A stretch of DNA of 64,000 bases from Escherichia coli (GTDB taxonomy: Bacteria; Pseudomonadota; Gammaproteobacteria; Enterobacterales; Enterobacteriaceae): assembly GCF_003334335.1 (NCBI RefSeq), contig NZ_QOWQ01000027.1. The stretch is one strand, 5' to 3'. A program made the position numbers and the translations under genes. The notes under the pieces were generated by a model that saw nothing but the letters and a program-made list of their open reading frames with translations, did no database searches and had not been told where the DNA came from. Shown one piece after another: positions 4,465 to 7,801 of the stretch (positions are counted from its first letter, which is position 1; each line of letters starts with the position of its first letter).

Positions 4465-6465
4465 ATGTTACGTAATGGAAATAAATATCTCCTGATGCTG
4501 GTGAGTATAATTATGCTCACCGCGTGCATTAGCCAGTCAAGAACATCATTTATACCGCCACAGGATCGCGAATCTTTACTCGCCGAGCAACCGTGGCCGC
4601 ATAATGGTTTTGTAGCGATTTCATGGCATAACGTTGAAGACGAAGCTGCCGACCAGCGTTTTATGTCAGTGCGGACATCAGCACTGCGTGAACAATTTGC
4701 CTGGCTGCGCGAGAACGGTTATCAACCGGTCAGTATTGCTCAAATTCGTGAAGCACATCGAGGAGGAAAACCGCTACCGGAAAAAGCTGTAGTGCTGACT
4801 TTTGATGACGGCTACCAGAGTTTTTATACCCGCGTCTTCCCAATTCTTCAGGCCTTCCAGTGGCCTGCTGTATGGGCCCCCGTCGGCAGTTGGGTCGATA
4901 CGCCAGCGGATAAACAAGTAAAATTTGGCGATGAGTTGGTCGATCGAGAATATTTTGCCACGTGGCAACAAGTGCGAGAAGTTGCGCGTTCCCGGCTCGT
5001 TGAGCTCGCTTCTCATACATGGAATTCTCACTACGGTATTCAGGCTAATGCCACCGGCAGCTTATTGCCTGTATATGTAAATCGTGCATATTTTACTGAC
5101 CACGCACGGTATGAAACCGCAGCAGAATACCGGGAAAGAATTCGTCTGGATGCTGTAAAAATGACGGAATACCTGCGTACAAAGGTTGAGGTAAATCCAC
5201 ACGTTTTTGTTTGGCCTTATGGCGAAGCGAATGGCATAGCGATAGAGGAATTAAAAAAACTCGGTTATGACATGTTCTTCACCCTTGAATCAGGTTTGGC
5301 AAATGCGTCGCAATTGGATTCCATTCCGCGGGTATTAATCGCCAATAATCCCTCATTAAAAGAGTTTGCCCAGCAAATTATTACCGTACAGGAAAAATCA
5401 CCACAACGGATAATGCATATCGATCTTGATTACGTTTATGACGAAAACCTCCAGCAAATGGATCGCAATATTGATGTGCTAATTCAGCGGGTGAAAGATA
5501 TGCAAATATCAACCGTGTATTTGCAGGCATTTGCTGATCCCGATGGTGATGGGCTGGTCAAAGAGGTCTGGTTTCCAAATCGTTTGCTACCAATGAAAGC
5601 AGATATTTTTAGTCGGGTTGCCTGGCAATTACGTACCCGCTCAGGTGTAAACATCTATGCGTGGATGCCGGTATTAAGCTGGGATTTAGATCCCACATTA
5701 ACGCGAGTAAAATACTTACCAACAGGGGAGAAAAAAGCACAAATTCATCCTGAACAATATCACCGTCTCTCTCCTTTCGATGACAGAGTCAGAGCACAAG
5801 TTGGCATGTTATATGAAGATCTTGCCGGACATGCTGCTTTTGATGGCATATTGTTCCACGATGATGCTTTGCTTTCAGATTATGAAGATGCCAGTGCACC
5901 GGCTATCACGGCTTATCAGCAAGCAGGCTTTAGCGGGAGTCTGAGCGAAATTCGACAAAACCCGGAGCAATTTAAACAGTGGGCCCGCTTTAAAAGTCGT
6001 GCGTTAACTGACTTCACTTTAGAACTTAGTGCGCGCGTAAAAGCCATTCGCGGTCCACATATTAAAACTGCACGAAATATTTTTGCACTTCCGGTAATAC
6101 AACCTGAAAGTGAAGCCTGGTTTGCACAGAATTATGCTGATTTCCTAAAAAGCTATGACTGGACCGCTATTATGGCTATGCCTTATCTGGAAGGTGTCGC
6201 AGAAAAATCGGCTGACCAATGGTTAATACAATTGACCAATCAAATTAAAAACATCCCTCAGGCTAAAGACAAATCTATTTTAGAATTACAGGCACAAAAC
6301 TGGCAGAAAAATGGTCAGCATCAGGCTATTTCTTCGCAACAACTCGCTCACTGGATGAGCCTATTACAACTGAATGGAGTGAAAAACTATGGTTATTATC
6401 CCGACAATTTTCTGCATAACCAACCTGAAATAGACCTTATTCGTCCTGAGTTTTCAACAGCCTAG
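4465..6465 (+). CDS. pgaB: PGA N-deacetylase lipoprotein, 666 aa here (ends at TAG 6463-6465)
   Basis: ORF track; lipoprotein signal (LTAC) and polysaccharide deacetylase-like sequence; in-frame continuation YPKND* after the amber reaches the pgaC overlap. Confidence 0.9.
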
Positions 6466-6475
6466 TATCCGAAAA

Positions 6476-7801
6476 ATGATTAATCGCATCGTATCGTTTT
6501 TTATATTATGTCTGGTGTTATGCATACCCCTATGCGTAGCGTACTTTCACTCTGGTGAACTGATGATGAGGTTCGTTTTCTTCTGGCCGTTTTTTATGTC
6601 CATTATGTGGATTGTTGGCGGCGTCTATTTCTGGGTCTATCGTGAACGCCACTGGCCGTGGGGAGAAAACGCACCAGCTCCCCAGTTGAAAGATAATCCG
6701 TCTATCTCCATTATCATTCCCTGTTTTAATGAGGAGAAAAACGTTGAGGAAACCATACACGCCGCTTTAGCACAGCGTTATGAGAACATTGAAGTTATTG
6801 CCGTAAATGACGGTTCAACAGATAAAACCCGTGCCATCCTGGATCGCATGGCTGCACAAATTCCCCATTTGCGGGTCATTCATCTGGCGCAAAACCAGGG
6901 GAAAGCCATTGCGCTTAAAACCGGAGCTGCCGCGGCGAAAAGTGAATATCTGGTGTGCATTGATGGCGATGCGTTATTAGACCGCGATGCGGCGGCATAT
7001 ATTGTGGAACCGATGTTGTACAACCCGCGTGTGGGTGCCGTAACCGGTAATCCTCGTATTCGAACACGTTCTACCCTGGTGGGTAAAATTCAGGTTGGCG
7101 AGTATTCCTCAATTATTGGTTTGATCAAGCGAACCCAGCGTATCTATGGAAACGTATTTACCGTTTCCGGTGTTATTGCCGCATTTCGTCGCAGCGCCCT
7201 GGCAGAAGTGGGTTACTGGAGTGACGATATGATCACCGAAGATATTGATATTAGCTGGAAGCTGCAGTTGAATCAGTGGACGATTTTTTACGAGCCACGG
7301 GCGCTGTGCTGGATATTAATGCCTGAAACGTTAAAAGGGCTGTGGAAACAGCGCCTGCGCTGGGCTCAGGGCGGTGCAGAAGTATTCCTCAAAAATATGA
7401 CAAGGTTGTGGCGCAAAGAAAACTTTCGAATGTGGCCGCTGTTTTTTGAATACTGCCTGACGACAATATGGGCCTTCACCTGCCTGGTCGGTTTCATTAT
7501 TTACGCAGTCCAACTTGCCGGTGTACCGTTAAATATTGAATTGACACATATCGCTGCGACACATACTGCCGGAATATTATTGTGTACGTTATGTTTACTG
7601 CAATTTATTGTCAGCCTGATGATCGAGAATCGCTATGAGCATAATCTGACTTCATCGCTTTTCTGGATTATTTGGTTCCCGGTTATTTTCTGGATGCTGA
7701 GCCTGGCAACGACATTGGTATCATTTACACGAGTCATGTTGATGCCTAAAAAGCAACGCGCCCGTTGGGTAAGTCCTGATCGCGGGATTCTGAGAGGTTA
7801 A
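6476..7801 (+). CDS. pgaC: PGA synthase, family-2 glycosyltransferase, 441 aa
   Basis: ORF track; GT2 motifs ([13 protein letters not shown] QxxRW) and TM segments. Confidence 0.95.

Follow-up and report, generated by a model that had tools for sequence, protein, structure and literature searches.

Dcm methylates the inner cytosine of CCWGG on both strands. In lacI, amber hotspots at Dcm sites arise via deamination of 5-methylcytosine (Coulondre et al. 1978, as reviewed in PMC12606429), and in native E. coli gene pairs whose upstream stop codon has been moved, a stop at +2 nucleotides (nt) costs 5-70% of reinitiation, one at +14 nt 40-80% and one at +38 nt nearly all of it (PMC10666635). Both topics bear on the gene we describe here, pgaB of the Escherichia coli pgaABCD operon, which in K-12 MG1655 is annotated with 2019 nt and 672 residues (WP_000945561.1) and overlaps pgaC by 8 nt. 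In a stretch of 64,000 nt from contig NZ_QOWQ01000027.1 (assembly GCF_003334335.1; one strand, 5' to 3'; henceforth the window, by which we mean the whole stretch), pgaB carries an amber codon in place of Trp667, an allele we denote W667*. The best explanation overall, to which we assign a probability of about 0.78, is that TGG became TAG at a Dcm hotspot, that this change is recurrent and that the resulting allele is hypomorphic or near-neutral.

Across the junction between pgaB and pgaC the window reads TCA ACA GCC TAG TAT CCG AAA AAT GAT TAA TCG. An initial annotation of this DNA had placed the amber codon at 6463-6465, with the same frame running on through YPKND to TAA at 6481-6483 and the pgaC ATG at 6476, all of which is borne out by the sequence and the list of open reading frames. 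Its figure of 672 residues for K-12 PgaB, with TGG at the amber position, agrees with WP_000945561.1, as does its proposal that one G-to-A transition cuts PgaB from 672 to 666 residues: both K-12 and EC416, the complete genome nearest to the window, have TGG here, and 6464 (A in the window, G in both) is the sole pgaB base at which the window differs from K-12 or EC416. The truncated allele thus spans 4465-6465 on the plus strand (666 codons plus TAG according to the open-reading-frame list and translation, residues 1-666 being those of K-12 PgaB), and the amber stop in place of Trp667 (6463-6465, plus strand), seen in the window translation, is shared at the DNA level by nine independent draft contigs (numbered L006-L014 here). 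Behind it lie a new 10-nt untranslated spacer from the pgaB stop to the pgaC start (6466-6475, plus strand), where the wild type has its 8-nt overlap, and the orphaned tail codons YPKND together with the ancestral TAA (6466-6483, plus strand; TAA at 6481-6483), of which Tyr668 and Pro669 are part of an invariant WYP motif. In other words, the stop/start overlap ATGATTAA is replaced by a 10-nt spacer through G6464A. The initial annotation had also located the amber codon inside this overlap; a natural stop/start overlap does exist and the trimmed codons contain it, but TAG itself stands 11 nt upstream of 6476-6483.

We take G6464 as ancestral and A as derived because TAG is missing from complete genomes and because TGG is found in K-12, EC416 and homologues from other genera, namely at the homologous codon in Enterobacter, Xenorhabdus and a record labelled Alloalcanivorax xenomutans. 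The complete-genome set comprised 5,426 E. coli genomes, 4,306 of which contain the 121-bp junction, with a top identity of 99.2%, i.e. one mismatch. A 41-mer centred on 6464, designed such that each 28-base megablast seed is forced to include A6464, gave no match to A6464 in the 5,426 genomes, and the same held when it was repeated in a composite query; a reference pgaB with TAG, which would have spoken against the reading of the initial annotation, did not turn up in this set. Outside it, a collection of 15 billion proteins contains exact copies of the 666-residue protein from NCBI, ENA and Logan assemblies (about 60 contigs; 122 index blocks), NCBI records mostly naming it as ordinary PgaB, and GCC TAG TAT was read in all nine of the draft contigs fetched. 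The nonsense mutation is thus real and derived, and apart from it the pgaABCD operon is K-12-identical. Judged from the titles and abstract openings of the papers listed, we found no published account of pgaB W667* or of the four in-frame Dcm sites of pgaB considered below.

The nine TAG contigs represent at least five local haplotypes, whose mutual differences amount to 13-226 sites per 8 kb. When closest relatives were sought in complete genomes for four TAG haplotypes other than that of the window, every one of them proved to have a TGG twin of its own, as the window has in EC416. Three of these twins (89-3156, NCTC9087 and C5; TAG counterparts L006, L007 and L009) differ from their counterparts by one base in 8,001, at 6464, and the fourth (AMSCJX02; TAG counterpart L011) differs, like the sibling of the window, at 6464 plus one other site. 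Moreover, a pgaB homologue only 58% identical (P0109, contig L030) shows the same GCC TAG in homologous position, with the YPHNEK codons behind it intact; at so low an identity, this TAG cannot be an imported E. coli tract. Judging from these haplotypes, W667* most likely had several separate origins, in E. coli lineages unrelated to one another, and its frequency stays low. Its recurrence in unrelated lineages is what we would expect because the site is a mutation hotspot.

That hotspot is a Dcm site. The ancestral pentamer at 6461-6465 is CCTGG, i.e. CCWGG, and G6464A turns it into CCTAG and the minus strand from CCAGG into CTAGG. The site is thus destroyed in the window, while CCTGG is retained in K-12, EC416 and all sibling haplotypes. 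G6464 pairs with the inner C of the minus-strand CCAGG, and the change fits C-to-T at this inner cytosine. As to mechanism, we envisage that the Dcm-methylated inner C of the minus-strand CCAGG would deaminate to thymine, that the resulting T:G mismatch would escape very-short-patch (Vsr) repair and that the plus strand would so become CCTAG. pgaB has exactly four CCWGG sites (4700-4704, 5621-5625, 6116-6120 and 6461-6465), all of them CCTGG framed as GCC TGG (Ala-Trp), at W80, W387, W552 and W667, Trp residues that the PgaB family conserves without exception; the same deamination event at any of them would therefore lead to TAG. As a side observation, none of the four is read in the C CTG G frame, which would be expected to be common, although n is only four.

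Composite queries of 41-mers, each centred on the mutated base, were run against the 5,426 complete genomes for all 20 Trp codons. TGG>TAG changes of the Dcm type (4 sites) occur in 12 genomes, seven with W387* and five with W552* (W80* and W667*, none), as opposed to a single genome (W167*) for TGG>TAG at the 16 non-Dcm sites and to seven genomes at two sites for TGG>TGA at all 20 Trp codons (six at W250, one near W369-W400). According to the fetched flanks, the 12 Dcm-type genomes represent six haplotypes or more: at least three for W552*, which are 78-120 differences apart per 7.4 kb, and at least three for W387*, with 53-148 differences per 8 kb. With haplotypes taken as a proxy for independent events, about six of nine events fall into four of 40 site classes, for which we calculate a binomial p of about 6e-5. 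Since the excess is limited to the G opposite the methylated C, mutation bias is favoured over selection for any null. The six genomes with TGA at W250 (window about 5212-5214), a non-Dcm site, are an observation of their own; the matching 249-residue prefix is found on 179 contigs and this stop is probably one successful lineage.

An earlier version of this test looked up the 20 truncated PgaB prefixes as exact matches in the collection of 15 billion proteins. The four Dcm sites gave 151, 276, 55 and 60 contigs and the 16 non-Dcm Trp controls 9-286, but genes broken off where a contig ends, clonal expansion and the fact that more alleles have the shorter prefixes in common all distort these counts. 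Because the rank test yielded a p of about 0.045 (our own calculation) on such confounded counts, it was replaced by the centred 41-mer test. Among the controls, the 612-residue prefix (286 contigs) consists mostly of Logan contigs that end at the same base; hundreds of Logan contigs stop at the identical base after pgaB codon 612 (window about 6300; records L018-L024), and a few have real TAG or TGA stops at codon 612/613. A break of the assembly graph at a polymorphic position seems to be the cause, and it inflates counts of 'partial' proteins.

Several points weigh against a recurrent, near-neutral Dcm transition. The exact-prefix test supports it weakly, and neither W80* nor W667* turned up among the 5,426 complete genomes that revealed W387* and W552*. 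The dcm and vsr genes lie outside the window, and methylation of the site and the dcm/vsr status of the strain are presumed. All TAG haplotypes are identical over 4346-6753, and a shorter recombination tract inside this block would leave no trace. Parallel recurrence could stem from selection instead of mutation bias. Finally, the invariance of WYP argues that the tail is not dispensable, so that 'near-neutral' may be wrong.

Of the alternatives, parallel adaptive change comes closest, though we consider it unlikely. It holds that truncation was selected, e.g. for less poly-N-acetylglucosamine (PNAG), for loss of an immunogenic polymer or for a saving in cost, and it would sit well with the presence of W667* on at least five backgrounds, with removal of the invariant WYP and alteration of the pgaC junction by one and the same change, and with the frequent inactivation or loss of the pga operon (the pgaB/pgaC junction is missing from 1,120 of the 5,426 complete genomes, and other strains have internal stops in pgaA or pgaB). 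What it does not predict is an excess confined to the very G-to-A expected from Dcm deamination: TGG>TGA at the same four codons is not clearly seen, and non-Dcm Trp codons, equally null when stopped, are almost never struck. Nor does the rarity of the allele, absent as it is from complete genomes, speak for selection.

Somewhat less probable still, to us, is a single origin, in which one G-to-A event was followed by spread of the allele through short homologous-recombination tracts. E. coli recombination tracts are often as short as the identical 2.4-kb block (4346-6753) that all TAG haplotypes share and within which a confined tract would go undetected. This scenario would, however, require four or more transfers, each wholly within the invariant block and from a donor allele that is very rare (0 of the 4,306 pga-bearing complete genomes). 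It is also at odds with the same change in the 58%-identical homologue, which was unable to receive an E. coli tract, and with the other pgaB Dcm sites, which show the same multi-haplotype pattern.

Very improbable is that a suppressor tRNA reads UAG, such that full-length 672-residue PgaB is still made and the overlap still used. While the intact downstream frame (YPKND, then TAA) would in principle permit this read-through, which the initial annotation had put forward for an amber-suppressor background, the 64 kb of the window contain a single tRNA gene, wild-type serT (anticodon UGA), and the allele is carried by field isolates of varied origin; amber suppressors are typical of laboratory strains and not expected in natural isolates. 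Sequencing or assembly error in the source genome, to which a single-base difference from the nearest complete genome might point, is ruled out for practical purposes by the same allele in many independent assemblies from different projects, among them L012 and L013, which show no difference from the window in about 8 kb.

Returning to the recurrent Dcm transition, we infer that W667* costs PgaB a tail that is conserved yet peripheral in the structure, and that it makes the junction of pgaB with pgaC looser. As for the tail, the residues removed are WYPKND, so the window protein ends at Ala666 and is without the full-length C-terminus and its WYP motif. An alignment of 53 homologues, reaching down to 52% identity, shows W667, Y668 and P669 unchanged throughout. 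Across genera, the Tyr and Pro codons of WYP vary at their third positions (TAT/TAC, CCG/CCA), and the constraint therefore looks to be at the protein level and not at that of nucleotides only. The WYP tail may be a short linear motif.

In the AlphaFold2 model, whose predicted local distance difference test (pLDDT) score averages 88, residues 667-672 fall below 50 and lie past the last helix (656-663). According to chain boundaries, crystallised PgaB (PDB 4F9D, 4F9J) comprises residues 42-655 and is without the tail, and PgaA contacts the N-terminal deacetylase domain of PgaB and not its C-terminus (PMC9384988). Since the tail is of low pLDDT and left out of the crystallised construct, and since the PgaA contact is N-terminal, the folded enzyme, including the catalytic and glycoside-hydrolase domains, should be intact in W667* as far as these models tell. 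For the identical 666-residue protein PF01522 and PF14883 are recorded, i.e. an N-terminal CE4 polysaccharide deacetylase and a C-terminal GH13-like domain, so that the two-domain architecture is kept, and window PgaB matches PDB entries 4F9D, 4P7L and 3VUS with E-values from 0 to 1e-182. Work by Little and colleagues in 2012 reportedly found deacetylase activity of the 42-655 construct in vitro.

As for the junction, the wild type and every homologue examined share an overlap of the pgaB stop with the pgaC start (ATGATTAA, ATGATTGA or ATGA), and the pgaC ATG follows 10 nt after the Trp codon in each of them. The window has a 10-nt gap in place of this overlap or abutment. pgaC itself (6476-7801, plus strand) encodes 441 residues, identical to the K-12 protein, and starts with ATG at 6476-6478 within ATGATTAA, where Shine-Dalgarno pairing is very weak. 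Taking the energy of the duplex with the anti-Shine-Dalgarno 3' end of 16S rRNA as a thermodynamic proxy for ribosome-binding strength, we obtained -2.8 kcal/mol for wild-type pgaC and +0.1 kcal/mol for the window, compared to -5.9, -5.9 and -6.5 kcal/mol for pgaA, pgaB and pgaD. By these energies, pgaC has no strong ribosome-binding site of its own, and the weak pairing of the wild type uses G6464 in part and is lost in the window. In addition, ViennaRNA folds (windows of -30..+30, -40..+40 and -60..+60) suggest a weak A/U-rich hairpin at 6471-6502 (plus strand) which would sequester the pgaC start codon.

The weak Shine-Dalgarno pairing, together with a start codon held in a weak predicted hairpin, suggests that pgaC is mainly translated by termination-reinitiation, a reliance we regard as probable on sequence grounds. 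With W667*, the pgaB stop would shift from an 8-nt overlap with pgaC to 10 nt upstream of its ATG and, given that pgaC has almost no Shine-Dalgarno, the longer stop-start spacing would lower PgaC output in part. By analogy to the native pairs with moved stops, which suggest that at this spacing the loss of reinitiation is partial and varies with the gene, PgaC synthesis is thus expected to be lowered partially and not abolished. The uncoupling of pgaB and pgaC, which the initial annotation had proposed and which the geometry of the junction suggests, is accordingly put here as a plausible partial effect, and the predicted net outcome of W667* is a hypomorphic or near-neutral allele.

W387* and W552*, which leave proteins of 386 and 551 residues, provide natural parallels. 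GCC TAG stands at these codons in seven and five complete genomes (records L035-L042), and the truncated proteins are present in the protein collection as well, where the members of the protein cluster include 551-residue exact prefixes that stop before W552 on two different PgaB alleles. They share with W667* the change from GCC TGG to GCC TAG at a Dcm site, yet they take away the C-terminal glycoside-hydrolase domain wholly or in large part, whereas W667* removes six residues only. RefSeq flags W387* and W552* as pseudogenes ('internal stop'), in contrast to W667*, which NCBI names as ordinary PgaB.

A pga operon that has decayed or is missing is no rarity in E. coli, and other lesions were noticed along the way. 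Three of the closest relatives of the window, LR-29-1 (L004, 6507-7204) and hits H43 and H55, have about 777 bp inserted past the pgaB stop, only a few bases downstream of the pgaC start. In LR-29-1 the insertion is annotated as IS1 transposase, and pgaC has been re-annotated from a later start; this is another route to disruption of the pgaB/pgaC junction. Internal stops in pgaA are seen in some close relatives (GDSC2BY4G, L005, 2033-4456; AW1.7, L037).

In the window the operon context is that of pgaA-pgaB-pgaC-pgaD. The first gene, pgaA (2033-4456, plus strand; 807 residues), and the last, pgaD (7803-8216, plus strand; 137 residues), encode proteins identical to those of K-12, as does pgaC, and the whole operon shows three base differences from MG1655: 6464 and two synonymous changes within pgaC. 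The order of dgcT, pgaABCD, phoH, efeB and efeO in the first 12 kb matches phylogroup-A/B1-like E. coli chromosomes. EC416 differs from the window by four bases in these 12 kb, 6464 among them, and over 62 kb by 19 single-nucleotide polymorphisms (SNPs) and one intergenic 1-bp indel. A mutator-type signature in the source strain was considered and rejected, 6464 being the only Dcm-type transition among the 19 SNPs; the SNP at 14939 also strikes the inner C of a Dcm site but is a transversion. No other nonsense change relative to EC416 was seen in the 62 kb compared.

Further features of the window lie away from pga. Going by the annotation of EC416 and other relatives, positions 1-47 are the 3' end of an IS3-family transposase gene adjoining dgcT. 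The sole indel in the 62 kb is a 1-bp deletion relative to EC416 at 27466, in the yccJ-agp intergenic region. serT (tRNA-Ser, anticodon UGA) occupies 61830-61917, and collinearity with EC416 is lost a few bases past its 3' end; positions 61923-64000 may be a strain-specific insertion at serT.

Taken by itself, W667* is an ordinary rare, recurrent natural nonsense polymorphism at a Dcm hotspot, and the kind of event is textbook. What it adds is an example of the textbook Dcm amber hotspot at the level of populations, the same G-to-A having struck repeatedly at W667 and at other in-frame Dcm sites of pgaB. It also points to an unstudied invariant WYP at the extreme C-terminus of PgaB and to a Shine-Dalgarno-poor pgaC that is probably dependent on coupling to pgaB, and it offers a ready-made natural mutant for probing both the WYP tail and pgaC coupling. 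On the practical side, annotation pipelines pass the 666-residue PgaB as intact, and an allele that may be hypomorphic would escape strain surveys in which pga counts as 'present'. A bolder scenario may be envisaged, in which the WYP tail would be a docking motif for PNAG processing or export, the -8 overlap would set the PgaB:PgaC stoichiometry and the four Dcm sites would form a methylation-driven mutational fuse, but we regard it as doubtful. If true, PNAG-off variants (W80*, W387*, W552*) and a PNAG-low variant (W667*) would be generated at elevated natural rates, which would amount to a crude contingency mechanism for a costly, immunogenic exopolysaccharide.

How, then, does the locus compare with the systems known? 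With the K-12 pgaABCD operon it shares PgaB residues 1-666, the gene order and the neighbours (dgcT upstream, phoH and efeB downstream); it differs in that W667-D672 are missing and that TAG precedes the pgaC ATG by 10 nt, in contrast to K-12, where TAA follows it by 5 nt. Like the crystallised 42-655 construct, whose two-domain structure could still be solved, the window protein is C-terminally shortened and without WYPKND. That construct, however, is engineered, soluble and non-lipidated, lacks 17 C-terminal residues rather than six and has no bearing on export in vivo. Relative to coupled overlapping gene pairs (Huber et al. 2019; PMC10666635), wild-type pgaB/pgaC with its -8 overlap belongs to a commonly recurring class and has the weak downstream Shine-Dalgarno, whereas the pair in the window is at +10 nt. 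Unlike the lacI amber hotspots, which came out of laboratory selection, the pgaB events are from natural populations, and the methylated C is on the non-coding strand, which gives TGG>TAG in place of the CAG>TAG of lacI. Common to the two, with the role of Dcm in pgaB drawn by analogy, are the CCWGG site, the transition at the methylated inner cytosine, the amber product and its repeated independent occurrence.

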